A stretch of DNA of 64,000 nt, taken from positions 28,128 to 92,127 of the forward strand of contig JALWEI010000022.1 in the NCBI GenBank assembly GCA_027014125.1. Direction: 5' to 3'. This DNA is from Acidilobaceae archaeon. Its GTDB lineage: Archaea > Thermoproteota > Thermoprotei_A > Sulfolobales > Acidilobaceae. The position numbers and the translations under genes are program-made. This document shows, piece by piece, positions 2,388-62,291 of this stretch (its first letter is position 1; each line of letters starts with the position of its first letter). A model generated the notes under the pieces. It saw nothing but the letters and a program-made list of their open reading frames with translations, did not search any database and was not told where the DNA came from.

Positions 2388-2480
2388 CCCTGGGGCACCG
2401 GGTCTCTTAACGTGGAGGGCCAGTATTTAAGCTAGGGATAGTGGATCCACATTAATACCCTAGCCGCTCGACCCCCGCCA

Positions 2481-4709: not shown

Positions 4710-6025
4710 AGGTCCAGCGCGGGTATGCCGGGCCTCGTCAGCCTCCTCAGGTCTAGTAGCTTATCCACCTCCTCCCTAGTGTATCCCAGCTCCTCTAGAG
4801 CCTCCCTGATGCTCCTACCCTCACCCATTAGCCTCGACAGCTCGGCTGCCTTGTCGTAGCCTATCACTGGCGCCAGCACCGTGACTAGGGCCTGGCTAGA
4901 CTCTGCCAGCCTAGCCATCCTCTCCCTCCTTGCCTCGATCCTGTCGACAACTAGGCTCGAGAGCTTGGAGAGGGACTCTCCGAGGAGAACCGACTGGGTG
5001 ACAACGTTGTAGCCAACCAGCGGTATGCCCATGCTCAGCTCCAGCTCGCCCAGGAGGTTCGCCATTGAGTTAGCCTGGTCAAGCCCCGCGACCTGCGCGG
5101 AAGCTTGCATAACAGCCTCAACTGTCACGGGGTTAACCTTGCCAGGCATCATGCTACTACCAGGCACTGCCTGGGGCATATCGATCTCCGCCAGCCCGGT
5201 GTTTGGCCCGGAGTACATTAGCCTAAGGTCCTGGCCTAGCCTCCACAGGTCGAGGGCTATAGCCCTGTAGGCACCGCTGAGGGATACCAGGTCTGTGAGG
5301 AGCCTCATAGCCCTGAACCGGCTCTCGGCCTGTTCTAGGGGGAGGCCGGTAGCCTCAGCTAGCTTGGCCACAGCCAGGCGCGGGTAGTCCGGGTGGGCAT
5401 TCAGCCCAGTGCCGACAGCGGTGCCGCCTAGCGGCACTAGCCTAACCAGGTCTAGTGCAGAGTCTAGGAGCCTCATATCAGCCTCCAGGGCCCTCCTGAA
5501 CGCATCCAGCTCCTGGCCCAGGGTCACGGGTAGAGCATCCCTCAGGTGAGTCCTCCCCGGCTTCACGGCATCCTCGAACCTGGAAGCGGCGTTGGCTAGC
5601 GAGGCTATTAGCTGGCCTAAGGCAGGCTTAACCCTCCACAGGGCCTCGGCTAGCGCCGCAACCCTTATAGCAGTTGGCACCACGTCATTGCTGGACTGGC
5701 TCTTATTCACGTGATCATTGGGGTGCACCTCTACCCCAGCTATCTTGGACGCCTCGGCGGCTATGACCTCGTTGACGTTCATGTTGAGCCCGGTGCCAGA
5801 CCCAGTCTGGAAGACGTCCACGACTATCAGATCATCGTAGGCCCCATCCGCCAGCTTGAGCGCAACCTCCTTAATAGCCTCCCCCCTCTTCTCGTCCAGG
5901 AGCCCGAGCTCCATGTTGGCGGATGCAGCAGCATACTTGACCATACCCATTGCCCATATTATCCTGCGAGGGAACCTGGTCCCCGTGTCTAGGAAAACCT
6001 TCACTGCATTCTTGACATACTTCAA
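4706..6025 (-). CDS. fumC: class II fumarate hydratase (fumarase/aspartase superfamily)
   Basis: 439 aa carrying the superfamily signature GSSMMPGKVNP plus TGSGTGLNMNVNEV and SQSSNDVVPTA. TTG start. Confidence 0.9.
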   Translation of the reverse strand: MKYVKNAVKVFLDTGTRFPRRIIWAMGMVKYAAASANMELGLLDEKRGEAIKEVALKLADGAYDDLIVVDVFQTGSGTGLNMNVNEVIAAEASKIAGVEVHPNDHVNKSQSSNDVVPTAIRVAALAEALWRVKPALGQLIASLANAASRFEDAVKPGRTHLRDALPVTLGQELDAFRRALEADMRLLDSALDLVRLVPLGGTAVGTGLNAHPDYPRLAVAKLAEATGLPLEQAESRFRAMRLLTDLVSLSGAYRAIALDLWRLGQDLRLMYSGPNTGLAEIDMPQAVPGSSMMPGKVNPVTVEAVMQASAQVAGLDQANSMANLLGELELSMGIPLVGYNVVTQSVLLGESLSKLSSLVVDRIEARRERMARLAESSQALVTVLAPVIGYDKAAELSRLMGEGRSIREALEELGYTREEVDKLLDLRRLTRPGIPALDL

Positions 6026-6114
6026 CCCGCAAGACCCCCGTCTCCAGGAGTGACACCTGGACCTGGATTGACCCTAATTAAGCCTAATCTGTAGCATAAG
6101 ACTGGCCCGGTGCC

Positions 6115-7032
6115 ATGGTTATGGGGCAACGGCAGCTGCCGCCGGAGGCCTTGGAGAAGGCTAGGGAGTTCTGCGTGGACGAGTATATAGACTATGTGAT
6201 CTACAAGGAGCTCGCAGCCAGAGAGTCGGATGAAAGGATGAGGGAGGTCTTGGAGAGGTTCTCCGAGCAGGAGTACAGGCACTACAAGTTCTGGTCATCA
6301 CTAGCCGGGGAGTGCCAGGTCAGCGTGCCGGGGTGGAAGCTAGCCTTCTTCAGGGCCTCCAGGAAGCTCCTGGGCCTAACCTTCACCCTCAAGTACCTTG
6401 AGAGGCATGAGAAGGATGTTATCGAGAGTTACAGGAGCTACATGAAGTACCTAGAGGGGGAGGAGAAGAGGGAGCTAGAGAGGATAATAAGGGATGAGGA
6501 GGAGCATGAGAAGACGCTGATAAGCGGGATGAATGAGAATATAGTGAGGTACCTAAGCTTCATAGCGCTGGGTTTGGCCGACGCGATAGTGGAGATAACA
6601 GGTGTCCACGCGGGCTTCCTAGGGGCAACAAAGGAGACGCTGGTAGCGGGAATTGCGGGCCTAATAGTAGGGGTATCAGCAGCTCTATCAATGTCCGGGG
6701 CAGCATACCTACAGGCCAAGGCTGAGGTGGGAGAGGCCAGGGAGAGCCCGGGGAGGAGCGCGATAGTGACAGGGGTCTCATACCTACTAGCAGTCATAGT
6801 ATTGGCGCTTCCATACTTCCTAACGCAGCACCAAATAACAGCCTTCGTAGTATCTGTAGTGTTGGCTATAGTAATCGTATCAGGGTTCACGTACTACAAT
6901 TCAGTGTTGAACGAGAAGGAGTTCAAGGGGGAATTGCTAGAAAACCTGGCAATACTATTCGGAACGGCTATCATAGCATACATGTTCGGAGAGGCACTAG
7001 GAAGCATATTCGGCATCCAGGGCATACTCTAG
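6115..7032 (+). CDS. VIT1/CCC1-family iron/manganese transporter with N-terminal ferritin-like (rubrerythrin-like) domain
   Basis: 305 aa. The N-terminal part has helical E-rich repeats (EYIDYVIYKELA...EQEYRHYKFW...EEEHEK). The C-terminal part has about 5 predicted TM helices. Confidence 0.65.
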   Translation: MVMGQRQLPPEALEKAREFCVDEYIDYVIYKELAARESDERMREVLERFSEQEYRHYKFWSSLAGECQVSVPGWKLAFFRASRKLLGLTFTLKYLERHEKDVIESYRSYMKYLEGEEKRELERIIRDEEEHEKTLISGMNENIVRYLSFIALGLADAIVEITGVHAGFLGATKETLVAGIAGLIVGVSAALSMSGAAYLQAKAEVGEARESPGRSAIVTGVSYLLAVIVLALPYFLTQHQITAFVVSVVLAIVIVSGFTYYNSVLNEKEFKGELLENLAILFGTAIIAYMFGEALGSIFGIQGIL

Positions 7033-7093
7033 CACACCAGTAGAGAAACATCTAAAAACCCCGCAGCCATCCAGAAACCGACACGGGAGGCAT

Positions 7094-7171
<78 letters not shown>

Positions 7172-7387
7172 CACAGGGCCCAGCCCCCACACAAGGGCTC
7201 CTACACGCTCCATATCCACCCACGATATTCAACTCTACCCATAGGTCTCCGGGAGTACCTCCGTGTACGACCAAAATAATTATACCTCCAGATCAGAAAA
7301 ATACTATAATGTAAATGTTAATTTTTTTGCAGATCGATACGCCATAATTTTTTAATGGGAAAGATATAAACTATAACATAACGAGAT

Positions 7388-7771
7388 ATGAATGCGAGGT
7401 GTATGGCGGTGTCAAGCCCGCTACAGAGGATCTTGGGGGACATGGCTAGGATCCCCGGCGTGACTGCGATATTCGTCGTCAGCAAGGAGGGATTCGTCAT
7501 AGAGAAGGCTACAGCAGGAACCATATCCATCGACGAGGACGCCATAGCTGCTATGCTAACGGCAGTCTACGGCTCCACAACGCAGCTGGGAGAGGAGCTA
7601 GAGCTGGGCAAGCCAGAGACAACCACACTGGAGTACCCGGGCCACTACCTGCTAGTACACGATATGGGCGAGAACCTGCTGACGGTACTAGCTGACAGGA
7701 GCAAGGCGGTACTGGGCAGGCTAAGGTATGAGGTCAAGAAGCAGGCCCCTAGGATAGCCAACGTCCTCTAG
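7388..7771 (+). CDS. Roadblock/LC7 (MglB-like) domain protein
   Basis: 127 aa with ...ILGDMARIPGVTAIFVVSKEGFVIEKATAGTISIDEDAIAAMLTAVYGSTTQLGEELELG...YLLVHDMGENLLTVLAD..., a typical Roadblock pattern. An AT-rich promoter-like region lies upstream. The start could instead be an internal ATG. Confidence 0.8.
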   Translation: MNARCMAVSSPLQRILGDMARIPGVTAIFVVSKEGFVIEKATAGTISIDEDAIAAMLTAVYGSTTQLGEELELGKPETTTLEYPGHYLLVHDMGENLLTVLADRSKAVLGRLRYEVKKQAPRIANVL

Positions 7772-7798
7772 CCTCAGTGCTAGAGGAGGGGCCCAGAG

Positions 7799-8326
7799 AT
7801 GGATGGGTATAAGGAGGGAGAATTCACATTGGCGGAGAAAATTGAGATCCCGAGCGGCCTGATTAATGCGATAATCGCAGGCTACCAGATAGCGCTAAAC
7901 AAGACACTAGGGGCAGGAGCAGCTGCTATGACGCAACTACTCATAAAAGACATAGGCGACTTCCTAGAGGATATGCTGGAGGAGATAGGGTTCGAGGTAC
8001 ACGAGATAAGCGACCTCAAGCAGGACATACCCAAAGCATTCAAGATGCTAGGGATAAGCGACGACGTAGAAGTCGAGATACCCAGCAACGGGGCAAACTC
8101 CGGAGACAAGTACATAATCAAGATAAAAGACAGCATATTCAAGCCAGTGGCAAGGCTCCTAGCAAAGAAGGGGATAAAGTTCACGCTAAGCCCCGAGTCA
8201 TTCCTGGCAGCGGCTATAGTCAGGAAGGCGATAAGGAAGACGAGGCCAGATGCACAGGTAAGAATAAAAGTCCACCCACAGAAGGATCCAGACGACCCCC
8301 TAGTGATAGAGGTAATCGTGAGGTAA
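7799..8326 (+). CDS. hypothetical protein, second gene of the Roadblock operon
   Basis: 175-aa ORF starting 27 nt after the previous stop. Composition is soluble alpha/beta-like. I cannot assign a family with certainty. A V4R/Bet3-like fold is only a guess. Confidence 0.6.
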   Translation: MDGYKEGEFTLAEKIEIPSGLINAIIAGYQIALNKTLGAGAAAMTQLLIKDIGDFLEDMLEEIGFEVHEISDLKQDIPKAFKMLGISDDVEVEIPSNGANSGDKYIIKIKDSIFKPVARLLAKKGIKFTLSPESFLAAAIVRKAIRKTRPDAQVRIKVHPQKDPDDPLVIEVIVR

Positions 8327-8333
8327 AACGGGT

Positions 8334-9062
8334 GTGAGCAGGGGAGAGGCAAGCTCAGAGGATGTATTAAGCCTCCAAGAATTCTTTTCCAAGCTAGACG
8401 GGATAGACTCATTCGTGGCAGTAGAGGAAGGATTCCCAATAGCATACCACGGCCTATCCGGGGAAGAAGCAGACGCCATGGCGGCACTAGCAGTAGACAT
8501 ATACACGGCAAGCAGCACAACGCTGGGAGATATACTCGGTAGAGAGAAAGCAGGGAAAGAGATCATAATAGTCCTGGAAGACGGGCGGGTCATAGATGTA
8601 GCTAAGGTAAGGGAAATAATACTGGCAGCAAGAGGCGCGAGAAAGCCAGCAGAAGAATCGATCCAGGCAGCCACGCTATACCTAGAGAATAAGAGAGTAT
8701 TATGCCCATACTGCAAGAGAGACCTGACACTGGAGACATATAAGTGTGGCAAGTGCGGCAAGACGTTCCCCTACCGGTCCAACACGTGCCCCCACTGCGG
8801 GACACCAGCACTAGTCAAGAAGTGCCCCGGATGCGGCAAGCCAACGACAGGAGACGGCAGGAGAGTAGAACTAGTGAAGCCGCCAGAAGCGAAGAGCCTA
8901 GCAGTACTCGAGGGGATCGTGGGAGCAGCAATAGCAGGTATAGTAGCACTACTAGCAACTGGGAATCCGATCGTCGTGGGAGCAGCAGGCATAGCAGGGG
9001 GAGCAGGGCTAGCGTATGCTACATATAAGAGTGTGAGACCAGAGTACAGGGTCATAGATTAG
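8334..9062 (+). CDS. Roadblock-like domain fused to a double zinc ribbon and a C-terminal glycine-zipper membrane anchor
   Basis: 242 aa. The N-terminal part (FVAVEEGFPIAYHGLSGEEADAMAALAVDIYTASSTTLGDILG) is Roadblock-like. It is followed by CPYC-x9-CGKC and CPHC-x8-CPGC, then GIVGAAIAGIVALLATGNPIVVGAAGIAGGAGLAYA. GTG start 7 nt after the previous gene. Confidence 0.65.
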   Translation: MSRGEASSEDVLSLQEFFSKLDGIDSFVAVEEGFPIAYHGLSGEEADAMAALAVDIYTASSTTLGDILGREKAGKEIIIVLEDGRVIDVAKVREIILAARGARKPAEESIQAATLYLENKRVLCPYCKRDLTLETYKCGKCGKTFPYRSNTCPHCGTPALVKKCPGCGKPTTGDGRRVELVKPPEAKSLAVLEGIVGAAIAGIVALLATGNPIVVGAAGIAGGAGLAYATYKSVRPEYRVID

Positions 9063-9889
9063 AGGAGAACATTCACATACCCCTTAGCAGAGATATCCTC
9101 CAGGAACTTTTTAACACCATCCAGGCTATCCATGCAAACAGACTCTATCAAATCCTTCTTGAACATCGATACTACAAAACTACAGGATTCCCATCCACGG
9201 AGAACACAAACATACTCTCCCTCCCTACCAACCACAGCAACACCATGTCTAGACACCATCTCAATAGGATCCCTACCAGCCTCCATGCAATCCATACGCC
9301 CGCATACTTGCCAAACCCTATCTAAACACAAGCTTATCACATCAACTCCACCCGGCTCGCCGTGCATTATGCTTGGTTCCATCTCACTCCTCCCAGGAGT
9401 CCCACTACCTCCTGCCTTATCCATTCCTCTCCCACGTGAGGTCGCCTCATCGATCTTCAGAATACTGTGGAGTATGGAAGGAAGCATACTCAGATCGACC
9501 CTAGTCAGCTTTATCCCCATACTGCCAGCTATTTCGTGGTCTAGACTTGCCGCCGTTTCGGTAGCCCGAAACTCCTCTATAGCCACCTTGTAAACCTGAT
9601 TTAAGTCAAATGCATCCCCGGCTATATTATGCATGATAATGGCCTCGTTCTTCATAGGGTTAATCCAGATACGTATTTCAAATTGTGAATTAGAAGATAT
9701 TATTATATTAAGTAGGACAATAGTATCTTTATTTTTAATTTCGATTATATTTTCTATAATATTCATTATTATAAATGGTAATTCCTCGGGTTCGTTCACA
9801 TCAATTACGATTGTATTTACATATTCTTTAAACGAAAAGCTTGGAAGTCTAATGCCGCCTCCTATATCCGCCATTATACCCCACTCCAC
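9059..9889 (-). CDS. hypothetical protein with a compositionally chimeric gene (AT-rich 5' third)
   Basis: 276-aa ORF convergent with the Roadblock operon, with a 4-nt overlap. The N-terminal ~95 codons are very AT-rich and Ile/Asn-rich, while the rest has normal composition. No recognisable family. Confidence 0.5.
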   Translation of the reverse strand: MEWGIMADIGGGIRLPSFSFKEYVNTIVIDVNEPEELPFIIMNIIENIIEIKNKDTIVLLNIIISSNSQFEIRIWINPMKNEAIIMHNIAGDAFDLNQVYKVAIEEFRATETAASLDHEIAGSMGIKLTRVDLSMLPSILHSILKIDEATSRGRGMDKAGGSGTPGRSEMEPSIMHGEPGGVDVISLCLDRVWQVCGRMDCMEAGRDPIEMVSRHGVAVVGREGEYVCVLRGWESCSFVVSMFKKDLIESVCMDSLDGVKKFLEDISAKGYVNVLL

Positions 9890-38324: not shown

Positions 38325-38401
38325 TGGTGGACCGGCCGGGATTTGAACCCGGGGCCTCTCGGGTGCAAGCCGAGCGCTCTTCCAGGCTGAGCTACCGGCC
38401 C
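38325..38401 (-). tRNA. tRNA-Ala (anticodon UGC), CCA encoded
   Basis: Reverse complement reads GGGCCGG-TA-GCTC..GAGC-G-CTCGG-CTTGCAC-CCGAG-AGGCC-CCGGG-TTCAAAT-CCCGG-CCGGTCC-A-CCA, with the G3:U70 alanine identity pair. Confidence 0.92.
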
Positions 38402-49984: not shown

Positions 49985-50272
49985 CTATATTGTTGGTGCC
50001 GGCTTTACCTGCTCCCTCATAAAGTCCTCTAGCCCTGCCTTCTTTATGGCTTCCAGGACCTTGTCGTCGCTGGCGCCCTTCTCGATGTCGATCTTTTTAT
50101 CGAGAGGCTCTATGTGGTCTATATTGGCCCTCCTCCTCCTAACGCCTGTTAGGCTCTTGGGGCCCGTTATCAGTACGAAGTTCTCATCTATTATATCAAC
50201 TATGACGCACTTCCTACCCGCCTCCCTGCCGTAGACCTTGACGCAGATCCGCCCGACCTCGATCACTGCCAT
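49985..50272 (-). CDS. rpl14e: 50S ribosomal protein L14e
   Basis: 95 aa, [38 protein letters not shown].... Confidence 0.9.
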
Positions 50273-50304
50273 CCCTCAACCCCTGCCTCCACCTGTGAGG
50301 GTTG

Positions 50305-50883
50305 CTATATTAAATCCTTGCCCAGGGCCAGCCTGAGGCCCTCCACAGCGGCTCTATAGGCCTCTTCCCTGCCGTACGTGTAGGTGTCTATTATAATATC
50401 GAAGATGCCGAGATCCCTAACGTCGATGCCATAGTACCTCTTGAACCTCCTCCACTGGCTGTACTCCCTGGCAACTATCTCCTCTAGTGCCTCTCCGAGG
50501 CTTACCTTGTCCCTCTCAGCAACCCTTCTGGCCCTAACCATGAGTGGAGCCTTAGTGTAGACTAGGTAGTCTGCTATATCGTGTATAAGCCACGCGGCAA
50601 GGTGGCTATCGATCACGACACCGCCTCTACGAGCCTCCTCGATGGTCCTCTTGTCTATCATAAGGTCTATGCTAGGATCCGACTCTGCCATAACGCTAAG
50701 TTCTACAAGCGAGATGCCCAGCTTCCTGGCTGTCTCCCTGAAGATGGAGCCTGTGGAGAGGTAGCGGAGGCCTAGATCCCCTGCTAGCCTCCTGGCTATT
50801 GTAGACTTCCCGGATCCCGGGGATCCCGATACTACTATTACAAGCCTCTTATTATCGACTCTCTTAGGGCCTCTGCTAGGCAT
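50305..50883 (-). CDS. cmk: cytidylate kinase (archaeal type)
   Basis: 192 aa with P-loop VSGSPGSGKSTIARRLA and ...YLSTGSIFRE.... Confidence 0.88.
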   Translation of the reverse strand: MPSRGPKRVDNKRLVIVVSGSPGSGKSTIARRLAGDLGLRYLSTGSIFRETARKLGISLVELSVMAESDPSIDLMIDKRTIEEARRGGVVIDSHLAAWLIHDIADYLVYTKAPLMVRARRVAERDKVSLGEALEEIVAREYSQWRRFKRYYGIDVRDLGIFDIIIDTYTYGREEAYRAAVEGLRLALGKDLI

Positions 50884-51119
50884 GACGGACAGAGCACCCC
50901 GCCATACGGCCTCTCAGGCCTCTTACTTGTCCTGCTCATACCCCTTAGCACACTAGGCCTGGCCCTAGGGACGCCAGCTAGGGGCCTACCACACCTGGCA
51001 CACCTGGCCGGGCCCGGCCTCCTCCTCTCATACCTGGTGACAGTCCTACCTCCAGGAGTCCTCCTCTGGACCCTCCTCAGGCTCCTGCTCCTCAGTGCAG
51101 GCCTGACCATAGCGTGCAC
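50838..51119 (-). CDS. rpl34e: 50S ribosomal protein L34e
   Basis: MVRPALRSRSLRRVQRRTPGGRTVTRYERRRPGPARCARCGRPLAGV.... The likely start is ATG 51110. Confidence 0.9.
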   Translation of the reverse strand: MHAMVRPALRSRSLRRVQRRTPGGRTVTRYERRRPGPARCARCGRPLAGVPRARPSVLRGMSRTSKRPERPYGGVLCPSCLAEALRESIIRGL

Positions 51120-51178
51120 CCCGCCTAGCCCGCCGTGGAGGCGGCATGTTGCCTAGGCGGGTTATAAGGGTAAGGCCG

Positions 51179-51607
51179 CTATAGGAGGTGCTTCCTGTAG
51201 ACTAGACTCGTGTATATGAAGGCTAGGAAGTATAGCATGAACGTAGGTACGACTGTAGTCCCGTTGATCTCCGTGGTGACTAGTGGAAGGGAGTATGGCG
51301 ACTTGACTAGGGGATACACGATCACCGATGCCAGCCCCCCGGCTATGTAGAAGCTAGTCAAGATGAGGAACTTAACCATCGTGCTCCTGAAGATTAGCCT
51401 CCTAGCCCTCCTGTACTCGGGTTCCAGCGACTTCAGCTTCTTCTGCGCTCTCTTACCCTTAGCACCACGCTCCAGAGCCCTGTACTCCGCTATCACGTCG
51501 ATAGCAGTCTTAATAGAGTCGTAGGGGACGATGCGCCTATACACCATCACCGCTAGGATTGCAGAGGAGACCGCGAGGAGTGGCGGAAACAGTGGAAGTA
51601 GATCCAT
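51179..51607 (-). CDS. DUF106 / archaeal YidC-Oxa1-EMC3-like membrane protein
   Basis: 142 aa with 3 TM segments and a basic coiled loop (KGKRAQKKLKSLEPEYRRARR). It occupies the conserved position between adk and L34e. Confidence 0.6.
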   Translation of the reverse strand: MDLLPLFPPLLAVSSAILAVMVYRRIVPYDSIKTAIDVIAEYRALERGAKGKRAQKKLKSLEPEYRRARRLIFRSTMVKFLILTSFYIAGGLASVIVYPLVKSPYSLPLVTTEINGTTVVPTFMLYFLAFIYTSLVYRKHLL

Positions 51608-51629
51608 CGCGGGCCCCCAAAGGGGTAGG

Positions 51630-53605
<1,976 letters not shown>

Positions 53606-53908
53606 CCATCAGTCACCGCAACACCTAGACGCCAGGAGGCCCCTGATACACTGACACGGTTAAAAGGGTTATACGGCAAGGCCAGCACAGAGACAGGCTA
53701 GCCAACGCACCACCATGGTAGCCAGCACACAGTACTATGAATGAGTAACATAAGATAGTGCAAGAAAAATACAAATAAAGAGAAGTTGATCTACCCATGG
53801 GTCGCCCTAGGAGTAGGAGTAGGTGGATGCTAGCCCGCCATCCCATAGATAGGATTAATAAACCCACCTAGGGATACTGACCCCTAAAATGGGGCCGTGG
53901 GACAGAGA

Positions 53909-53996
53909 GCGGGGGTGCCCGAGCCTGGTCAAAGGGGTCGGGCTCAGGACCCGATGGCGTAGGCCTGCGTGGGTTCAAATCCCACCCCCCGCACCA
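53909..53996 (+). tRNA. tRNA-Leu (anticodon CAG), long variable arm, CCA encoded; serves as integration target (attL)
   Basis: GCGGGGG acceptor, TCGGG-CTCAGGA-CCCGA anticodon arm, variable arm TGGCGTAGGCCTGCGT, GTGGG-TTCAAAT-CCCAC T arm, CCCCCGC-A-CCA. Confidence 0.92.
53946..53996 (+). repeat. attL: 51-nt 3' part of tRNA-Leu repeated at 58784..58834
   Basis: AGGACCCGATGGCGTAGGCCTGCGTGGGTTCAAATCCCACCC[C]CCGCACCA is identical to the right copy except for C(53988) versus T(58826). Confidence 0.9.
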
Positions 53997-54831
53997 CTTG
54001 ACGCCTCCAACACCAACATTGAACTCCTCTAGGATCTTCCTGACTGGTATATGAGCTATCGGCCTCCTCTTACCGTTACCGAGGTACTCCTCTATTACGA
54101 GGTAGTGGTAGGTGCACCTGCCACTCCTAACCTTCTTTATATAAACATACATTTTGAAGTCGCCCAGTTGAGAACTATCTTGTGTAGCTCCTGGAGACCT
54201 GTTAGTCATGGTATCACGCCCGTCTTACCCACACGACTGCAACAGGACCACCATGAATCTGCTTCAAAACCATGTTGAAGCTTGCAGCTTGGACGCCGTG
54301 CTACGCCTCCTGCAGGTCTACCCACTCCTATTTGCAATGCTCAGCTTCAAGAACTGGGCGAGGGCGACTGAGAGGGATGGCTCGAGTTCATACACATATC
54401 GTCCATGTAGCTAGAACCCTGCTACGCTTCATACTAGACATAATAGACCAAATATCCTCAATATAACACATATAATACTATATAAATTATTGCATATTAA
54501 TATAATTGTTCTTAGATAATGAAAACATTTATGCAATAGAATCTGAACTAGCCTTCAGGTACTTAAATCCACTAATAAACGGGCAACCAGCAGGGATGGG
54601 CTGCACCGAGGGAGAGCTATACAGGCTGATGGATCTCCTGTATCTGGAGAACTATAGCGATCACTAGCAGAGTAAGCCCTGCAGGCGGCTACTCAGGCTG
54701 GTAAAGGACCTGAAGGAGTACAGTATGGGAAGAACTACGAGCCAAGTTGGGATACTAGCCTGTTTTTAATTTACTTTTACTATGGATTTATAGGGGTCTC
54801 TCTAAAACATTTTAAATGGAGGTCTATCGGA

Positions 54832-55365
54832 ATGCCGAAAAACGAAGACCCTCGCAGGCAGTATGCAGAGAACAAGGAGCAAATAAGAGGTAATTTAGAT
54901 CTTACTGTAGAAGATTGGATACTTGCGTTAATAGCCTACGCTGGGGGAAAGCTTAAAGGGAAGACTAGGATTCAAAAGGGCCTCTTCCTTGTATGGCAGG
55001 AGATCGGTGGTGTAAAAGCTGACTTCGCTCCGTACAAGTACGGGCCCTACAGTAAAGACATAGACGAGGCCCTCAACCGTCTAGCAGGCGAGAATCTAAT
55101 TCTCGAGCGGGTGGTACCTGGAGGCGATGAGTCACCTGCTGTAGAGTATGAGCTAACCAAGAGGGGTTGGGAAAGAGCTAGGCAGACGTTGAATCAGCTA
55201 GAGGAGAGCGGGATACTGGAGAGGGCTAGACCATTCCTAGACCTAGCCATCAAGGGCTCTCTGATAGCCCTCATAGGATTCGTATACAGCATGTATCCAG
55301 AGTGGGCGGCAAACAGTGAGATCAAAGGGAGAATACGAAGCCTAGAGAAGTTGAAGAGGTTGTAG
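54832..55365 (+). CDS. DUF4065/Panacea (SocA-like antitoxin) domain-like protein with wHTH-like C-terminal part
   Basis: 177 aa. ...KTRIQKGLFLVWQEIGG..ADFAPYKYGPYSKDIDEAL... resembles the KLQKLLY...W.hGPV motif pair. It is followed by ...LILERVV...VEYELTKRGWE (winged-helix-like). Motif-level call only. Confidence 0.5.
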   Translation: MPKNEDPRRQYAENKEQIRGNLDLTVEDWILALIAYAGGKLKGKTRIQKGLFLVWQEIGGVKADFAPYKYGPYSKDIDEALNRLAGENLILERVVPGGDESPAVEYELTKRGWERARQTLNQLEESGILERARPFLDLAIKGSLIALIGFVYSMYPEWAANSEIKGRIRSLEKLKRL

Positions 55366-55396
55366 ATATAACTTAATACTAATGCCTAGCTCAAAG

Positions 55397-55978
55397 CTAA
55401 GTAACTAGGCAGCCTCCATCTTGTATCCTATGCAGGAACTCTTTTGCATGTGATTCTAAATCTTCAGCATAATCCTTTATATTTTCAAGAATCGTGAAAA
55501 ATCTGCTTATATTATTAATAAATCTATATAATGGTTCAATTATTAACAATAGCATTATGATAAAAATAGGTAAGTATTTTTCATAGGAAATTAATATTAA
55601 ACTAATTGCAACTAATATTGATAATATAAGAGCAAACCCTGTTATTAATATTTGATGAATCATATTAACTATATCATTAGAACGTAAAATATCTTCTAAT
55701 TTAGCATAAGCATCATCAAGCCTTATCTTATATGCGACACAGTTATCAAGTATTAATAAGATCTCTTCTTCATTTTTAGTACTAGCTAGCAATGAAGCTA
55801 GTTCTAGTTTTAATTGTTTATTAATAGCCCTATAGTTCTTAAGGGTTTCGTTTCCTTTATCCTTTATGGTATGAAATCTACGAATTAATAATTTATATGC
55901 TGTCACTATTATAGATATTACTGCTGTTATTATTGTTGTGGCTACTTTAGCAAGTGTATCGAATAACCCTGATTCCAA
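55397..55978 (-). CDS. AT-rich gene for a 3-TM membrane protein with central coiled coil (candidate toxin/effector)
   Basis: 193 aa. TM1 is ATTIITAVISIIVTAY, followed by a helical charged segment. TM2-3 are ILITGFALILSILVAISLILI and LPIFIIMLLLIIEPL. GC content is far below its surroundings. It is convergent with 54832..55365 across a 31-nt gap. Confidence 0.6.
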   Translation of the reverse strand: MESGLFDTLAKVATTIITAVISIIVTAYKLLIRRFHTIKDKGNETLKNYRAINKQLKLELASLLASTKNEEEILLILDNCVAYKIRLDDAYAKLEDILRSNDIVNMIHQILITGFALILSILVAISLILISYEKYLPIFIIMLLLIIEPLYRFINNISRFFTILENIKDYAEDLESHAKEFLHRIQDGGCLVT

Positions 55979-56039
55979 CTCCTCGTTTCTCCCTCCATAA
56001 CTCCAATATACCCAATATACTAGTATATTAAGAGAAAAA

Positions 56040-56327
56040 CTACCCTCCTAGGCATCTGTCCATGCAACGACCACGATCCGTAAGCCTGATAATGTTCTTG
56101 GGTCCATCTGGAACTACCTCTACTAGGCCTAGCTTCTCTAGGATATTCCTGTACCGTATGACTACGCTCTGGTCTCGTTTCATGAACTGTGAGAGTTCGT
56201 ATGTGCTAGGTGTTTTCCCTGTTTGCTCGTAGGCTAATAGGGCTTTAAGCATGTCAAATGTGATTTGTAGTGTGTACCCGGAACTGCGTGCCACTATGTA
56301 CACACTATGTACACCATACACTAACAT
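56040..56327 (-). CDS. small winged-helix (MarR/ArsR-like) DNA-binding protein
   Basis: 95 aa, ...STYELSQFMKRDQSVVIRYRNILEKLGLVEVVPDGPKNIIRLTDRG.... It is divergent from 56416..56871. Confidence 0.6.
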   Translation of the reverse strand: MLVYGVHSVYIVARSSGYTLQITFDMLKALLAYEQTGKTPSTYELSQFMKRDQSVVIRYRNILEKLGLVEVVPDGPKNIIRLTDRGRCMDRCLGG

Positions 56328-56415
56328 GTGGGAAACGTATATTAACCACTAATCCAATAATTAGCTAATAGATAGTATATAGTGGTAGGGCAAGAATCTC
56401 CTGTAGAATATAGGC

Positions 56416-56871
56416 ATGAAACCAACAACCGATAACCTATACTGGGAAGAAAGACGCTTCATAGAGCGCAAGCTGAGAGCATGGCTTAACGGAGAATACA
56501 AGAAATCGAGAAGAGCATGGCTTGGCATAAGACTAACGCCCACGCTCAAGGAGATATACGATAGGGCACCAGATGACGTAAAGCAGGCCGCTAGGAGAGC
56601 CCTAGAGGCGGTCCTTATATCATGGTTTCTAGGGGAGAGTACTGTTGCATATAACAAGCCATCACACGCTACACATGTTTTTATCATAAACGTTAATATA
56701 AACGAGAACAGTAACAACGTAGATGTCGAGGTGAATATTGACTTAGCTAGCGTAATACGTGAATTAAGACGATTCGAGAACATACTTAGGAGTAGCCCGT
56801 ATGTCGGGCCTATTGCAAGGCGTACCCTCGAGAATGTTATAAGGCAGCTTGAGAAGGGTCTAACAAACTAG
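56416..56871 (+). CDS. hypothetical protein (element cargo)
   Basis: 151-aa ORF with no recognisable family. Confidence 0.5.
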   Translation: MKPTTDNLYWEERRFIERKLRAWLNGEYKKSRRAWLGIRLTPTLKEIYDRAPDDVKQAARRALEAVLISWFLGESTVAYNKPSHATHVFIINVNINENSNNVDVEVNIDLASVIRELRRFENILRSSPYVGPIARRTLENVIRQLEKGLTN

Positions 56872-56976
56872 TCATATTTATATTGTTTATTATTAGATAA
56901 TTAATATATAAACTTATTAATTTATATTAATTAACTAACTAATTAGTTGTGATGTGTCAGAAAGGGTGATAAAAGC

Positions 56977-57207
56977 ATGGGCCGCAGGCCTGTAGGAGTC
57001 TACGTGATCCCTAGAGTAGATTATGGAATAGAGCATATAGCAGTAGACGTTGTCAGAACTAAGAGTGAGTTATACGAGTTGGGTGTCAGGATACTGCTAG
57101 TCCTAGCCAAGCATGACAGGGTGCCAGACAACCTAGCCTATGTGTTTGAGAAGCACGACCCAGAAACGCTGGAGAAGCTCGTAGACCTGCTAGTGGCAGC
57201 GAGGTAG
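56977..57207 (+). CDS. hypothetical small protein (element cargo)
   Basis: 76-aa ORF preceded by a ~100-nt extremely AT-rich spacer and a GGTGAT-like SD. Confidence 0.5.
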   Translation: MGRRPVGVYVIPRVDYGIEHIAVDVVRTKSELYELGVRILLVLAKHDRVPDNLAYVFEKHDPETLEKLVDLLVAAR

Positions 57208-57234
57208 CCAGCCTATGAAGTAGCATAGCAGGGG

Positions 57235-57684
57235 TTGTTGCAGTGGCTGAGGCTTAGGGTTGTCGGTGGCGGTGAGTTCACTGATACGGTGATTGTCAGG
57301 GTCTCGGTGAGCAGGGAGGCGCTGAGGTTGAGAAGTATTGCTGTCGAATTGTACAGGGTGGCTAGCGAGCTGAGCGGCGCAGGCAGGTGGCAGGAGGTCG
57401 AGGTGCTGAGAGATAGTGGAGAGGCTCGAGCGAGATGCCCTGGAGAAGCTCAGGGAGAGCATCCAGGCGGCTGCGGAGGCAGCGTCCCGCTACGTAGCAT
57501 ACGAGGGCGGCTAGCCATGTTCGCGTACCTCAGCTGCGTAAAGAGGGTGGTGGCTTTCGGCCACACGAGCCTCACCGACCTGCCAGACGACGTGAGAACG
57601 TGCATCGTGAACGAGTGCAGGGAGCACGCTGTCAGCGGGAGACGCGTGAGCAGAGTAATAGGGGAGTGTGGTGGTAGGCGGTGA
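57235..57684 (+). CDS. uncertain ORF, probably two or three small or frameshifted genes
   Basis: The 149-aa track ORF has a Gly/Arg/Pro-rich middle that looks non-coding. An alternative frame (GTG 57416..TAG 57514: VERLERDALEKLRESIQAAAEAASRYVAYEGG) is more protein-like and is followed by ATG 57517 (MFAYLSCVKRVV...). Confidence 0.3.
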   Translation: MLQWLRLRVVGGGEFTDTVIVRVSVSREALRLRSIAVELYRVASELSGAGRWQEVEVLRDSGEARARCPGEAQGEHPGGCGGSVPLRSIRGRLAMFAYLSCVKRVVAFGHTSLTDLPDDVRTCIVNECREHAVSGRRVSRVIGECGGRR

Positions 57685-58059
57685 TCACTGCTAGGTACTT
57701 GCTCACACAGCAGAGCCTACTCCAGTACTATACTATTATACTATTAGCTATACAATTAGTAGAGGACTACAGGTGGCATCTCGGGGACAACGGGATGGAA
57801 CAACAGATGCTGGACCTACAGGGGCCTCAGATACCACTTGTATTATAGGTATTAGAACAAGAGTTTAGAGTGGTACACGGACGAGCAGACCCTCAGGAAG
57901 CTCGCCGAGGAGGGCCTGATCAGGCGCAGGGAGATCAGGAGGTGGAAGCGGGTCCTCTTCTACACGTCTCAAAACTACGAGTTCCTGGTCAAGAGCGTGA
58001 TGGAGCTAGGGAGAAAATAATCAAGAAGAGCTACCCCCGAGCCACGCCGCGTACTCCTC

Positions 58060-58834
58060 TTACACCTTATCCGCTATTATTAGCAGGTTTAGGTAGTGCC
58101 CGCGCAGGACATTGTCTGGAACCCTTCCCTGGATGAAGTTTATTGTGGCTTCTGGTATCTCTAGGTTAAGCATCCTAGTGGCTACCCATTTCCTCACGTA
58201 TTTGAATGGCACTAGTTCCAGCTCTATCTTGGCCTCTCGAAGCTCCTCCAGGTCCACAGGCCTCTCCTCTGGATACTCGAGTAGGTATGCCCAGAACGTC
58301 TGCTTACTACGCCTCGGCAAGCTGAGCTCGCACTTGACGAAGCCATCCAGCTCTACGCGCCTCAGCACACCCTCAACCAGCACCTTGTAGAAGAAGCCTA
58401 GGCTGCTCTCTAGGGCCCGCCTTATCTCCCCGTCCTCTGGCACGTACAGGTCTGGCATGCTCCTCCTGCTCTTCACCCGCTTGAACTCCTCGCAGGCTCT
58501 AGCATGTTGCTTCTCGTCGCATAGCCACTTCGAGAACCGTTTGTAGGCCGTAACGTGTCACCTAGAAGGCCTCCACTGGTTTCTCCCCTATGTCTATATC
58601 CTGCAGCTTCCTCGAGTACTGTGCACAGGTCTCCTAGCTCGAGTGCTGCCTGCGCCAGGCCTCGAACTCTGCTAGCAGCTTTTGTGAAACCTGAATTCCC
58701 AGCCTCTTCTTAAGAACACTAATAGCTTGTCCATTACTAGGTGATTGTCCTAGTTGATGCACGTAGGGTGTTAGGTCAGGCTGAGGACCCGATGGCGTAG
58801 GCCTGCGTGGGTTCAAATCCCACCCTCCGCACCA
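58060..58834 (-). pseudogene. integrase C-terminal part Int(C), SSV-type tyrosine recombinase, disrupted
   Basis: It starts in attR (WCGGWDLNPRRPTPSGPQPDL...). An in-frame TAG lies at 58634-58636, a second stop at 58562-58564, and there is a frame change near 58558-58565. The catalytic tail is ...YVRKWVATRML...FIQGRVPDNVLRGHYL (R..R, HY). Confidence 0.7.
58784..58834 (+). repeat. attR: orphan copy of the tRNA-Leu 3' half
   Basis: 51-nt copy of 53946..53996 with one mismatch (T at 58826). No tRNA 5' half precedes it. Confidence 0.9.
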
Positions 58835-59043
58835 TTCATAATGAAATAATCCTATGCAGTTTGATCATCAACCGTAATTGTTTACGTTATCGAGCATAGG
58901 AGGGTTTAGGTGTGGGCTTTATTGGGGCCGGGCTTATCTACTGCCTTAGGGGCCGGATGATCTGCCGTTGGGTGTCGCCCGCATCGTCGGAGTGGTGACG
59001 AGTCCCCTGGCTTTGACGGCCCTTTCTTCTAGGTTGATGCTGA

Positions 59044-59814
59044 TTAAGCTGTGATTCCTATCTTTTCTAAGAATTCTCTTAGGATGCTTGTGTATTCTGC
59101 TGGTTTCTGTATGTGGGTTAGGTGTCCTGCTCCCCGTATTATCTTGAGGGTTGAGCCCTGTATTGCCTCGTGTAGCTTGGCTAGCTCGTGTGGTGGAGTG
59201 ATTGGGTCTAGCTCTCCTCCTATGATCAGGGTTGGTCTGGATATGGTGTGGGTGATGTGGGTTAGGTCTTCTCCTTGTATCCTTGTAGCTACTCTCAGTA
59301 TGTAGTCGGGGCTTCCGGATAGTAGGCTGGATAGGTTGCTGGCGCCCAGCCTCCTGGCTATCCTCCCCTGGGCATCATGGTCCTCCTCTAGCAGGGCCCT
59401 CTGTAGTAGATCAGTGTTTATCCTTATCCTGGGGCTGGTGTTGGATAGGACTAGGGCTTTGACTCTATCCTTTGCCGCTTCATACAGCCTTAGCGCGACC
59501 ATGCCACCCATGCTAGAGCCAACTATCACTGCTTCCCCTACCCCCTCCCAATCCATTACGCCCAGCACGTCCCTGGCGAAGTCCGTGGTGCCCGGGGTAG
59601 TGGGCGGTCGCTCGGACCTGCCAAAGCCTCGCAGGTCCACAGCTATTGCCCTGAGTCTGGGCGAGAGCGCCTTTAGCTGGTAGAGCCAAGCCTCGGCCCT
59701 GCCGCCGAGGCCGTGTATAAACACTACTGCAACATCGCCAGAGCCGGCTATTATGTAGCTTATCCTAAGCCCCTCTACTACTGCAACCCTCCTCTCGTAC
59801 ATACCCTCGGGCAC
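59044..59814 (-). CDS. alpha/beta-fold hydrolase
   Basis: 256 aa with HGLGG oxyanion loop, nucleophile elbow GSSMGG and C-terminal GAGHL. Confidence 0.8.
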   Translation of the reverse strand: MPEGMYERRVAVVEGLRISYIIAGSGDVAVVFIHGLGGRAEAWLYQLKALSPRLRAIAVDLRGFGRSERPPTTPGTTDFARDVLGVMDWEGVGEAVIVGSSMGGMVALRLYEAAKDRVKALVLSNTSPRIRINTDLLQRALLEEDHDAQGRIARRLGASNLSSLLSGSPDYILRVATRIQGEDLTHITHTISRPTLIIGGELDPITPPHELAKLHEAIQGSTLKIIRGAGHLTHIQKPAEYTSILREFLEKIGITA

Positions 59815-59851
59815 CCAGTGTTAATGGCCACTGCCAGGGCATATTTCCGGG

Positions 59852-60115
59852 TTGGGTGTAAGGGGCTTGACAGCGCTGAGCAGGGCTCCTGAGGGTGCTA
59901 GGGTTAGGGTTAGGAGTGTACCCGGTGGTAGCGTGGGTGGCATGCTGAAGAGTAGAGGGATCATGCCGGGCTCCGTTCTCACCATAGTGAGCAACCCCAG
60001 CGTGCCTTGGAGCCCAGTTATAGTGAAGGTTATGGGGACCAGGGTTGCGGTGGGCCGTGACGTCGCCAATAGTATAGAGGTTGAGGTCCTGAGCGAGGGT
60101 GAACCTGTTTCTTAG
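59852..60115 (+). CDS. feoA: FeoA-domain protein
   Basis: 87 aa. ...ARVRVRSVPGG...LKSRGIMPGSVLTIVSN.....VIVKVMGTRVAVGRDVANSIEV matches the SH3-like FeoA pattern. Located upstream of feoB. Confidence 0.8.
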   Translation: MGVRGLTALSRAPEGARVRVRSVPGGSVGGMLKSRGIMPGSVLTIVSNPSVPWSPVIVKVMGTRVAVGRDVANSIEVEVLSEGEPVS

Positions 60116-60212
60116 CCGAAAAGCTTGCTAGTTTAACAGTGTTTATTAGACTCGGGCCCCCGGAATTTTACATGGTAGAATATATGTTAAAGCCGCGGGG
60201 AGTGGCACGAAG

Positions 60213-62291
60213 TTGAGGCACAGCCACGCAAAGACAATACACCTAGCGGAAGAAGCGGGGGAATGCAGCACGATAGTACTACTAGTGGGCACCCCAAACA
60301 GCGGGAAGTCCACACTATTCAACCAGATAACAGGCGGCAAGAGCAGGATAGCCAACTGGCCCGGAGTCACAGTAGACCTACACTACAGTAGGCTAGGCGA
60401 CACATGCATAGTAGACACGCCCGGAGCCTACGCCATGGACGGAGGCACGATAGAGGAGGAGATACTAGTAGACGCGATAACCAGCCTAAAGCCGAGCAAG
60501 ATAGTATTCATACTGGACGGGCTACAACCGGAAGCAGGTATATACCTACTAACACAGCTACTAGAAGCATACCAGGGCCCAGTAGAGGTGCTAGTCACGA
60601 AATCTCTACTCTCACACGGATCCGGGATACACATCGACGTGGAAGGCCTATCACGCAGGCTAGGTGTGAGGATCAACAGGGTGAGCATACTAGAAGGCGT
60701 AGGCATGGAGAGGGTCAAGGAGGCGATAAGCACGACAAGCACAAGCAAGCCACAGCTAAGGATAGACTATGGCCCGCTAGAACCCTACATAAGCATACTA
60801 GAGCAACTAATAGACGAGGACAAGATAAGACCCCTATCCAAGAGATGGCTAGCAGTACAGCTACTAGCCGGGGACCAGGTGGCAAGGGGAATAGCAGCAA
60901 GCATAGGCGAGGGGATACTGGGGGAGGCTGATAGGATAAAATCAGCCCTTGTATCACAGGGCATAGACCCCGAGGACGTGATCGCATCAGCCAGGCTAGA
61001 CACGGCGGAGACCCTGGCAAGGAGGTACGTTATAAGGAGGACCCCAGGGGAGCTGGGTGCCAGGATCGACAAGGTAATGCTACACCCCATACTAGGCCCC
61101 CTAGCCAGCATAGCGATTCTATTCGCAGCCTTCTTCGCAGTGTTCAGCATATCCATAGGCTTCCCGCTAAACATGATCCTCTACTCGCTAGGCATGCCCC
61201 ACGCCGCCGCGTTGATAGAAGAGTACAGCCTAGCCGGGATCATCAGCATGGCCTTCGATAGGCTACTATCAATGGTGCCAGACCAGGGGCTAGCCTGGGG
61301 CCTAGTCTCTGGCGTCCTAAGCGGTGTAGGCGTTATCGCCTCGTTCATACCATTAATAGCAGTGGCAACAGCCTTCCTAGCGATCCTCGAGGATTCCGGA
61401 ATTATGACTAGAATAGCAGTCTCACTCCACCCATTCCTCCAGAAGCTGGACGTCTCAGGCAGGAGCATCTACCCATACCTACTAGGACTTGGGTGCAATG
61501 TGCCGGCGATAATCACATCCCGCCTACTCCCAGCGGGCGAGAGGATGAGGGTCATATTCTCGATCCCATTCGTCATATGTAGCGCGAGGCTAATAGTGCT
61601 ACTCGCATTCGTATCCGCATTCTTCAAAGGCCCCCTAACCCAGGCCGTGGTTGCAGCCAGCATCTACACCCTATCGGCGCTGGTAGCCCTAATCACAGCT
61701 AGGATTGCCCACCGCATCTACGGGGGAGAGGATCCAGGGAAGCCCTATCTAGTAATGGAGCTGCCCCTAATGCACAAGCCAAGTATGAGAGTCGTATGGT
61801 GGAGTGTAAGGTCCTCGCTAGCGCACTTCATAAGGAAGATGGCGGGCCCTATAACAGTGGCAGCCGTGATTATATGGCTCCTCCTCCAAGCACCCGGCAG
61901 TGGAGCCAGCCTGGGCCACACGATAGGCTCAACCCTAGGTACCATATTCGAGCCGCTAGGTGTGGGGGAGGAGCAGGCACAGATACTAGGTCTAGCCGGG
62001 ATAGCAGGGTCTATGGTGAAGGAAGTTATAGTGGAGACCATCGGGGTGGCTTACGGCAGCCCTGACCCAAGGGAGGCTGTTGCTGCGCTAGGCCTTACAC
62101 CGGTCCAGGCCTACTCTATACTGGTATTCTTCATGTTCTACACCCCCTGCATAGCGACGGCGGTGGCGGTGTATAGTGAGACCGGCCGCCCCAGGCTACT
62201 GGCCTCCCTGATAGCATACTCCCTAGCGGTAGCAGTTGCCCTCATGTACATAACCTACGCAATCCTAGAGGTGGCGACCAGGTGGCTATGA
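60213..62291 (+). CDS. feoB: ferrous iron transporter FeoB
   Basis: 692 aa with an N-terminal G domain (GTPNSGKSTLFNQITG, DTPG), followed by a polytopic gate/nucleoside-recognition membrane domain. TTG start. Confidence 0.92.
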   Translation: MRHSHAKTIHLAEEAGECSTIVLLVGTPNSGKSTLFNQITGGKSRIANWPGVTVDLHYSRLGDTCIVDTPGAYAMDGGTIEEEILVDAITSLKPSKIVFILDGLQPEAGIYLLTQLLEAYQGPVEVLVTKSLLSHGSGIHIDVEGLSRRLGVRINRVSILEGVGMERVKEAISTTSTSKPQLRIDYGPLEPYISILEQLIDEDKIRPLSKRWLAVQLLAGDQVARGIAASIGEGILGEADRIKSALVSQGIDPEDVIASARLDTAETLARRYVIRRTPGELGARIDKVMLHPILGPLASIAILFAAFFAVFSISIGFPLNMILYSLGMPHAAALIEEYSLAGIISMAFDRLLSMVPDQGLAWGLVSGVLSGVGVIASFIPLIAVATAFLAILEDSGIMTRIAVSLHPFLQKLDVSGRSIYPYLLGLGCNVPAIITSRLLPAGERMRVIFSIPFVICSARLIVLLAFVSAFFKGPLTQAVVAASIYTLSALVALITARIAHRIYGGEDPGKPYLVMELPLMHKPSMRVVWWSVRSSLAHFIRKMAGPITVAAVIIWLLLQAPGSGASLGHTIGSTLGTIFEPLGVGEEQAQILGLAGIAGSMVKEVIVETIGVAYGSPDPREAVAALGLTPVQAYSILVFFMFYTPCIATAVAVYSETGRPRLLASLIAYSLAVAVALMYITYAILEVATRWL

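Follow-up and report, generated by a model that had tools for sequence, protein, structure and literature searches.

We analysed a 64,000-nucleotide (nt) stretch of DNA (the window; GenBank assembly GCA_027014125.1, contig JALWEI010000022.1, positions 28,128 to 92,127) from an Acidilobaceae archaeon, focusing on a 4.8-kb insert that separates a tRNA-Leu(CAG) gene from an orphan copy of that gene's 3′ part. A reading made from the letters alone (the original prediction) had described a cryptic, integrated element at this tRNA gene, directly upstream of secY. The tRNA gene, at 53909–53996 on the plus strand, is 88 nt long and intact, and is called by both ARAGORN and Rfam (RF00005, 56.2 bits). 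The start of secY (52238–53605, minus strand) lies 303 nt away from it, in agreement with the predicted position. A repeat search of positions 53000–60000 returned a direct repeat of 61 nt at 53936–53996 (attL, the left attachment site) and 58774–58834 (attR), whose two copies lie 4,838 bp apart and agree at 58 of 61 positions; the other repeats in that region (best 14–33 nt at 73–93% identity) are background. The prediction had reported 51 nt with one mismatch (C53988/T58826) and about 10 nt of weaker similarity beyond, and this extension accounts for the two extra mismatches that we found. The three differences fall at 53940/58778, 53945/58783 and 53988/58826, and the copies share a 42-nt exact core. 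The second difference is the first anticodon base, giving CAG in the tRNA and GAG at the anticodon position of the orphan copy, and the third leaves T at 58826. Neither ARAGORN nor Rfam calls a tRNA in the right copy, which bears out the predicted contrast between a left copy that completes the tRNA and a right copy that is an orphan 3′ part. An alpha/beta-hydrolase gene (59044–59814) comes after the right repeat. A repeat that corresponds to part of a tRNA gene, one copy of which restores the tRNA, is as expected of SSV-type integration. The insert has a GC content of 45.9%, compared with 54.6% for the window, and contains troughs of 27.7% (55397–55978) and 18% (56872–56976); of the AT-rich patches that had been noted, the one placed at 55380–56040 is not non-coding and corresponds to the gene of a 193-amino-acid (aa) membrane protein.

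An SSV-type integrase gene is split between the two ends of the insert

Both predicted integrase fragments are real, and together they make up one gene. The left fragment, int(N) (53997–54209, minus strand), comprises the N-terminal 71 element-encoded codons. Its open reading frame (ORF), 54209–53868, begins inside the insert and exits through the complement of the tRNA ('...VKWCGGWDLNPRRPTPSGPEPDP...'), and the same peptide frame resumes in the right repeat and runs leftward into the insert. There lies the int(C) pseudogene (58042–58834, minus strand), which encodes the catalytic part and was delineated by three-frame translation and tblastn against the integrase of L009, an integrated relative described below; its segment 58476–58060 matches Pfam PF16795 (archaeal Phage_integr_3) at 3e-19 over profile positions 53–153 of 161. 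The integrases of L009 and of L049, a circular relative, match the same profile at 4e-32 and 3e-47, respectively, and for that of L009 a match to two SSV1 integrase structures, 3VCF and 4DKS (4e-28), confirms the fold family of the catalytic domain. Int(N) is 63–65% identical in amino-acid sequence to L009 Int(N), 48% to the L049 integrase and 51% to the N terminus of the integrase of the virus APOV1. Int(N) thus abuts attL and Int(C) abuts attR, as expected of an element whose own attachment site, attP, is internal to the integrase ORF; this position of attP is also the reason for the regenerated tRNA, the orphan 3′ part and the split gene. The suicidal mechanism of SSV-type integrases and their link to PF16795 have been reviewed (PMC8371274, PMC7253208).

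We circularised the element in silico by joining 54209–53997 to 58834–58000 and aligned the product to the L009 integrase rebuilt likewise from its own Int(N) and Int(C), which gives 357 aa with no stops and no frameshifts. The joined window fragments are collinear with it end to end at 56–60% identity. On the minus strand, three in-frame stops interrupt Int(C) where L009 has an amino acid: TAG at 58634–58636 (for Glu), TGA at 58558–58560 (for Trp) and a premature TAA at 58060–58062 (for Tyr). The frame also shifts once, near 58567, and 15 codons of the catalytic domain are missing near 58347. Given these lesions, the reconstituted integrase does not read as functional, a verdict that concerns its activity and not its origin. 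The catalytic Arg, Lys, Arg and Tyr motifs are still legible in the fragments (LRRVE, KYVRKWVA, IQGR and RGHY, by eye in the L009–SSV1 alignment). Among sequenced viruses, the best match of the reconstituted protein is APOV1 (Betaguttavirus; 29% identity over 94% of the length, 3e-25), followed by Aeropyrum globular virus 1 and many Sulfolobus fuselloviruses; a scan of IMG/VR with the integrase returned APOV1 as its sole match. There is no second integrase copy within the 64-kb window.

The secY-adjacent tRNA-Leu locus is empty in close relatives and a recurrent integration hot spot

Looked up as an exact sequence, the window SecY matched no record. Searching with it against one genome per species gave 46 loci, which belong without exception to Acidilobaceae, Desulfurococcales and related metagenome-assembled genomes (MAGs). 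At the closest of these, L001 (SecY 98% identical; about 94–95% nt identity across the locus), window positions 50001–53696 correspond to L001 7148–3453, the tRNA to 3198–3051 and positions 58774–61911 to 3111–1. L001 has no counterpart of window positions 53997–58773, and its tRNA-Leu runs directly into the hydrolase flank. The site is likewise unoccupied in L002 (83% nt identity), where tRNA-Leu again leads directly into this flank. An empty site in related strains was the check proposed with the original prediction, and its presence in two genomes favours insertion; an unoccupied attB, the chromosomal target, is also what SSV-type integration implies. The window attL equals the attB of these empty-site genomes with no differences, and the whole tRNA-Leu sequence is identical in L001, L002, L004, L006 and L008.

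These observations also dispose of the possibility that the right repeat is a segmental duplication of the tRNA 3′ half unrelated to site-specific recombination. Nothing but the repeat itself speaks for such an event, whereas each copy adjoins an integrase half oriented as predicted, L001 and L002 have empty sites, and the att core lies inside the unsplit integrase genes of L049 and APOV1. We consider simple tRNA duplication refuted, with a negligible residual probability.

Other genomes carry the same locus at further stages of occupation. L008 retains a 1.57-kb scar (8214–9859) that is delimited by a 45-nt att copy and consists solely of Int(N) and a much-decayed Int(C); in L004 (5897–6172) and L003 (463–765), Int(N) alone is left at the locus. 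The secY-adjacent tRNA-Leu locus is a recurrent integration hot spot, and a decay series takes shape around tRNA-Leu, from the 7.6-kb circle L049 and the 8.1-kb provirus of L009, through the 4.8-kb window remnant, to the 1.6-kb integrase-only scar of L008, the Int(N) stubs of L003 and L004 and the empty site of L001 and L002. Int(N) remnants of the same integrase family were also seen beside secY-linked tRNA-Leu genes in L007, L013, L018, L028 and L046.

The anticodon of the syntenic tRNA-Leu varies, being CAG in the window, GAG in L003 and L013, TAG in L011 and TAA in L015. These genes are otherwise nearly identical, and position 21 in the D-loop, which lies outside the att repeat, co-varies with the anticodon. 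We considered whether integration had switched the anticodon and rejected this for L003 and L013, since the co-variation at position 21 marks them as entire isoacceptor genes of another kind and not as 3′-half swaps. Exchange or rearrangement among tRNA-Leu genes may lie behind the variation, possibly by way of integrated elements.

A rival explanation is an assembly artefact, in which metagenome assembly would have threaded an episome into the chromosomal tRNA-Leu via the shared core. The related sequences in the collections come from MAGs, and an independent Logan contig (L050, SRR14326976) that is 100% identical to window positions 54077–58207 covers the interior and not the junctions. An element with no replication functions and a dead integrase is implausible as an episome, however, the two att copies differ at three positions, and the same locus holds graded genuine remnants in L009 (8.1 kb), L008 (1.6 kb), L004 and L003 (both Int(N) only). 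An artefact of this kind is very unlikely.

Circular and integrated relatives connect the element to APOV1

L049 (JGI metagenome 3300005095, Ga0072504_103740, 7,673 bp) was reached through its homologue of o177, a 177-aa protein encoded in the insert. Because the ends of the contig overlap exactly over 91 bp, L049 is a circle of 7,582 bp. Its unsplit integrase (413 aa) is 75% identical to that of APOV1, and a tRNA-Leu-like att core lies inside the gene. Directly upstream is the gene for a 244-aa ATPase (phrog_5484 'DnaA-like', 2.7e-15; 33% identity to APOV1 orf19), whereas APOV1 has an extra small ORF, orf20-100, between ATPase and integrase gene. The 106-aa and 234-aa proteins of L049 occupy the positions of APOV1 orf18 and orf17, and further genes encode two small proteins with two transmembrane (TM) segments each and one 236-aa secreted or membrane-anchored protein. 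L049 may be an APOV1-like virus or plasmid of about half the APOV1 size. The integrated relative in L009 spans 8.1 kb (1281–9404) between two tRNA-Leu(GAG)-type repeats. It encodes a P-loop ATPase in the same place as that of L049, along with a 656-aa protein and three small hydrophobic ones, and is possibly an inducible provirus. Only by analogy are the small proteins with two TM segments in L049 and L009 candidate capsid proteins; they have no similarity to APOV1 proteins.

All of these elements share the attachment site. Over about 55 nt, the att cores of the window element, L009, L049 and APOV1 are almost the same, differing mainly at the anticodon position, which reads GAG in the window and L009, CAA in L049 and TAA in APOV1. 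APOV1 is a provirus in tRNA-Leu that encodes a tyrosine integrase and a DnaA-like ATPase (ICTV profile, PMC5882108). The window element resembles APOV1 in its SSV-type integrase, its att core from a tRNA-Leu 3′ half and its integration into tRNA-Leu, and also in a gene similar to orf1-128, for a winged helix-turn-helix (wHTH) protein, that is convergent to the 3′ end of the integrase gene. It differs from APOV1 in being only 4.8 kb long, with a dead integrase, no DnaA-like ATPase next to it and no capsid or large structural genes; its cargo genes o177, o193, o95, o151 and o76 have no APOV1 counterpart, and its host belongs to another lineage (Acidilobaceae/Desulfurococcales MAG relatives). We place the window element in an APOV1-like lineage for which tRNA-Leu genes are a hot spot in vent Acidilobaceae-like archaea. 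To our knowledge, APOV1 is so far the sole sequenced member of its family, and its lineage now extends beyond Aeropyrum.

The window copy lacks replication genes and carries pseudogenes

Relative to L049, the window element has no equivalent of a stretch of about 2.8 kb that runs from the integrase start codon, across the circle origin, to about codon 176 of the 236-aa gene. The DnaA-like ATPase, the 106-aa gene, the 234-aa gene and both small TM genes are gone. What is left of the 236-aa gene is a frameshifted 3′ stub of its last 57 or so codons (54286–54454, plus strand; aa 177–233 by tblastn, in two frames), which is 74% identical in nt sequence to L049 1145–1325 and marks the right edge of the deletion. 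This stub is the only trace of a capsid or structural gene, and Pfam, PHROGs and tblastn against L049 recognised no DnaA-like ATPase or replication gene in the element. Near the other end, a pseudogene of the family wHTH protein (57666–58017, plus strand; 114 aa in L049, related to APOV1 orf1-128) was recovered by tblastn in two frames, with a +1 frameshift near 57795, and is similar to APOV1 1–387; direct reading of the sequence shows an in-frame TAG at 57853–57855. The description of the element as a reduced remnant without replication or capsid genes therefore stands, and ORFs 53868–54209, 57666–58017 and 58042–58834 should be annotated as pseudogene fragments, the tRNA-Leu as intact and the cargo block as horizontally acquired.

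Six cargo ORFs remain intact (o177, o193, o95, o151, o76 and a 55-aa Cys-rich ORF), and the element is a mosaic: its integrase is nearest to that of L009, o177 to that of L049, and the o95/o76 pair to that of L005. Inspected by eye, one frame of the region upstream of the 55-aa gene (57235–57516) resembles L009 7724–8110 and APOV1 orf3-113, and the end of the region, a plausible coiled-coil C terminus (…EIVERLERDALEKLRESIQAAAEAASRYVAYEGG*), is read in another; this may be one more frameshifted gene.

Small elements that live with larger viruses offer a different view of such a reduced gene content. pSSVi and pSSVx are small (about 5–6 kb) integrative or satellite elements of Sulfolobus fuselloviruses that encode replication functions and are active; pSSVi combines an SSV-type integrase and integration into a tRNA gene with the absence of capsid genes, and the two spread as satellites with fuselloviruses. 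By analogy, the window element might be mobilised in trans by the intact integrase of a superinfecting APOV1-like element and then spread in a satellite-like manner. Its att copies would permit this, being identical at 58 of 61 positions with an exact 42-nt core, and related elements are common in the clade (L009 and L049; remnants in L003, L004 and L008). Reviews report that integrated suicidal-integrase elements can be excised by exogenous related integrases (PMC8371274). The window element has no recognisable replication protein, though, its structural-gene stub and frameshifted wHTH gene point to decay and not to a streamlined satellite, a search of JGI metagenome contigs found no circular junction, and no helper lies within the 64-kb window. 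We regard mobilisation in trans as improbable.

Probable capture of a decayed APOV1-like element at tRNA-Leu(CAG)

Taken together, the 4.8-kb insert is very probably (about 0.9) the decayed remnant of an APOV1-like provirus or plasmid that integrated into tRNA-Leu(CAG) by its own SSV-type integrase. The prediction that a crenarchaeal virus or plasmid had integrated site-specifically at a tRNA gene is borne out by the split integrase, the empty site, the episomal relatives and the gene loss. In the sequence of events that we propose, a small circular APOV1-like element, related to guttaviruses and fuselloviruses, would have integrated by means of its own tyrosine integrase. Recombination between attP, inside the integrase frame, and the 3′ part of the tRNA gene yields an intact tRNA at attL and an orphan 3′ part at attR, and splits the integrase gene so that Int(N) lies at one end of the insert and Int(C) at the other. 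These recombination steps are shown by the anatomy of the insert, the empty sites and the unsplit gene in episomal relatives. We infer that the crossover took place 3′ of the anticodon, because attL keeps the chromosomal CAG and attR carries the element's GAG. The three att mismatches place it no more finely than 3′ of the anticodon, and T58826 could be either a later mutation or the original chromosomal base. After integration, the deletion of about 2.8 kb would have removed the DnaA-like ATPase operon and the small membrane and structural genes, Int(C) would have gained its three stops, frameshift and internal gap, and the wHTH gene would have been frameshifted. Because of these three kinds of lesion, the window copy is presumably no longer able to excise, replicate or form particles by itself and is thus 'captured' by the chromosome. 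The intact survivors are a block of small regulatory and membrane genes, comprising o177, o193, o95, o151, o76 and the 55-aa ORF.

Several points weigh against this history. A search of JGI metagenome contigs found no excised circle or exact attP junction, a weak negative that also fits immobility. If the window stems from a metagenome assembly, the 42-nt exact core could conceivably have led the assembler to join an episome to the tRNA gene, although episomal persistence of a copy with no replication gene and a broken integrase is unlikely. That the copy arose by deletion from an L049-like ancestor, as opposed to being a naturally small element, is deduced from gene stubs. The window integrase is just 29% identical to that of APOV1 and no virion gene is present, and the designation of the ancestor as a virus rather than a plasmid depends on its relatives.

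The phenomenon itself is already known, in that proviruses and plasmids become trapped after integration by a suicidal integrase, and the window holds a further example. Integrated SSV-type (type I) elements and the 'gene capture' model reportedly go back to work by She and colleagues in 2001, 2002 and 2004 and by Badel and colleagues in 2020 and 2021. The window element shares with that model the attP in the integrase gene, the tRNA target, the flanking Int(N) and Int(C) and the later decay, and differs from it in nothing of kind; its attP copy with GAG, compared with CAG in the occupied gene, is a small illustration of relaxed site choice. In such elements the integrase fragments decay and the cargo is trapped in the chromosome (PMC8371274, PMC7253208). 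For an uncultured hydrothermal-vent crenarchaeon, this is a cleanly documented case of gene capture through a suicidal integrase, complete with an empty site and an episomal relative. The parts that stand out are the conserved o177–o193 gene pair and the 7.6-kb circular relative L049.

A conserved pair of cargo genes, o177 and o193

The insert had been described as containing only small orphan ORFs; this does not apply to all of its cargo, as o177 and o193 have homologues in L049 with 88% and 32–36% identity, respectively. The intact gene of o177 (54832–55365, plus strand) encodes a protein that profiles and an AlphaFold2 (AF2) model searched with Foldseek relate to the DarG C-terminal domain and to Panacea proteins, with a winged helix. 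It matches the PADLOC profiles PDC-M19A (1.8e-12) and DarG (4e-7) and the NCBIfam profile DarG (5e-5), aligning to the DarG C-terminal region only, and has no direct Pfam match. Its AF2 model (pLDDT 89.8) finds 7YK3 DarG as the top Foldseek match (E 1e-4, TM-score 0.5), ahead of MarR and PadR winged-helix regulators, and the family profile has the DarG chain 7yk3_B as its best PDB match. The o177 family comprises 737 representative clusters; in a 67-member sample, 11 match PF13274 SocA_Panacea and 17 match PadR. A profile scan of JGI data for o177 relatives returned one locus. Hypothetical proteins of SSV3/4/5 are 32% identical to o177, and a scan of IMG/VR with o177 gave no match. Relative to its homologue at L049 1422–1967 (88% aa identity), o177 has a ratio of nonsynonymous to synonymous substitution rates (dN/dS) of 0.10.

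Convergent to o177 lies o193 (55397–55978, minus strand), an intact gene for a 193-aa multi-pass membrane protein. Its collinear homologue in L049 (1988–2560) is 32–36% identical, depending on the method, and a homologue search returned only the query itself, with no homologue besides that of L049. With 27.7% GC, compared with about 54% for the L049 homologue and 54.6% for the window, o193 suggests allele replacement from a low-GC donor. In five contexts (the window, L049, L051–53, L054 and L056), a convergent partner abuts or overlaps the 3′ end of the o177 homologue; it is 190–220 aa long, with one TM segment at the N terminus and two or three more after a helical middle part, and ends in a helix. 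This recurrence suggests that o177 and o193 may form a functional pair. The pair spans 54832–55978 in the window, 1422–2560 in L049, 6201–7427 in L051, 2124–3012 in L054 and 371–1554 in L056. Pairs of this type occur inside and outside integrase-bearing elements, and two of the outside contexts lie near a radical-SAM gene.

A bolder proposal, which is compatible with a captured APOV1-like remnant, is that the pair, perhaps with the o95 regulator, is an undescribed archaeal module that has been selected and kept in the chromosome for toxin–antitoxin (TA, or addiction), abortive-infection or superinfection-exclusion functions, with o177 as a putative DarG C-terminal-domain or Panacea-like neutraliser and o193 as a putative membrane effector whose allele was swapped from a low-GC donor. 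The DarG and PDC-M19A profile matches, the 7YK3 fold match and the 11 of 67 relatives with PF13274 are in its favour, as is the membrane/coiled-coil partner that recurs convergently in five contexts with o177 identities down to 34%. Panacea antitoxins neutralise membrane-disrupting toxins, and PanA partners include membrane toxins (PMC8832971). The resemblance of o177 to Panacea (PanA, SocA; PF13274) and DarG C-terminal domains in sequence profile and predicted fold has its limits, in that o177 itself has neither PF13274 nor a macrodomain, no DarT-like gene is adjacent, and it sits in an archaeal mobile element with a candidate partner that is convergent in all five contexts and not co-transcribed, unlike the bicistronic operons of type II TA systems and the co-directional two-gene operon expected of PanAT and DarTG. 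Outside L049, the membrane partners are just 22–25% similar, and the link may be architectural rather than homologous. Both genes are intact amid pseudogene neighbours and o177 has a low dN/dS, but this ratio mostly reflects time spent in active elements. We put the proposal forward tentatively, as an unlikely possibility.

Other cargo genes and their spacers

The remaining cargo is small. A 95-aa winged-helix regulator, o95 (56040–56327, minus strand), gives weak wHTH matches in Pfam, PHROGs and PADLOC and is 64% identical in amino-acid sequence to L005 5056–5319, with synonymous sites saturated between the two. The 151-aa protein o151 (56416–56871, plus strand) has one metagenomic homologue, at 88% identity; it matches phrog_11638 at 1.5e-6 and has no match in the phage collection or in IMG/VR. 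The 76-aa protein o76 (56977–57207, plus strand) is 63% identical in amino-acid sequence to L005 5409–5531, and the gene of the 55-aa Cys-rich protein (57517–57684, plus strand), 64% identical to L049 3717–3884, is kept in the family. In L005, the genes homologous to o95 and o76 are chromosomal partners in divergent orientation, a pair that L049 and L009 lack.

Two AT-rich stretches had been suggested to be promoter or origin relics. The intergenic spacer 56872–56976 (18% GC) contains a 16-nt inverted repeat (56893–56908/56923–56938, 94% complementary), and a TTAGCTAAT/CTAATTAG-type motif is common to this spacer, to the spacer 56328–56415 and to the spacer of the L005 divergent pair. The spacer 56872–56976 probably serves o76 as promoter/operator; most simply, it can be taken as a promoter/operator for the wHTH regulator, which agrees with the promoter half of the suggestion and not with the origin half. 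The palindromic AT-rich motif is found in both spacers that flank o151 and in the single spacer of L005, and it looks as if o151 had been inserted into a divergent promoter region with duplication of the operator. The other stretch, a 9-bp inverted repeat at 54488/54530, is present but within chance, as about 11% of Markov-shuffled versions of the block have one, and we dropped it as a feature. A scan for sigma-70 promoters and intrinsic terminators stayed near the shuffled expectation, and such models are not meaningful for an archaeon.

In L005, the o95 and o76 homologues stand beside a gene for a 181-aa membrane protein, immediately 3′ of tRNA-Ala(TGC) (4337–5576). This region has no counterpart near the tRNA-Ala of the window (38325–38401), and it may be another small tRNA-linked remnant.

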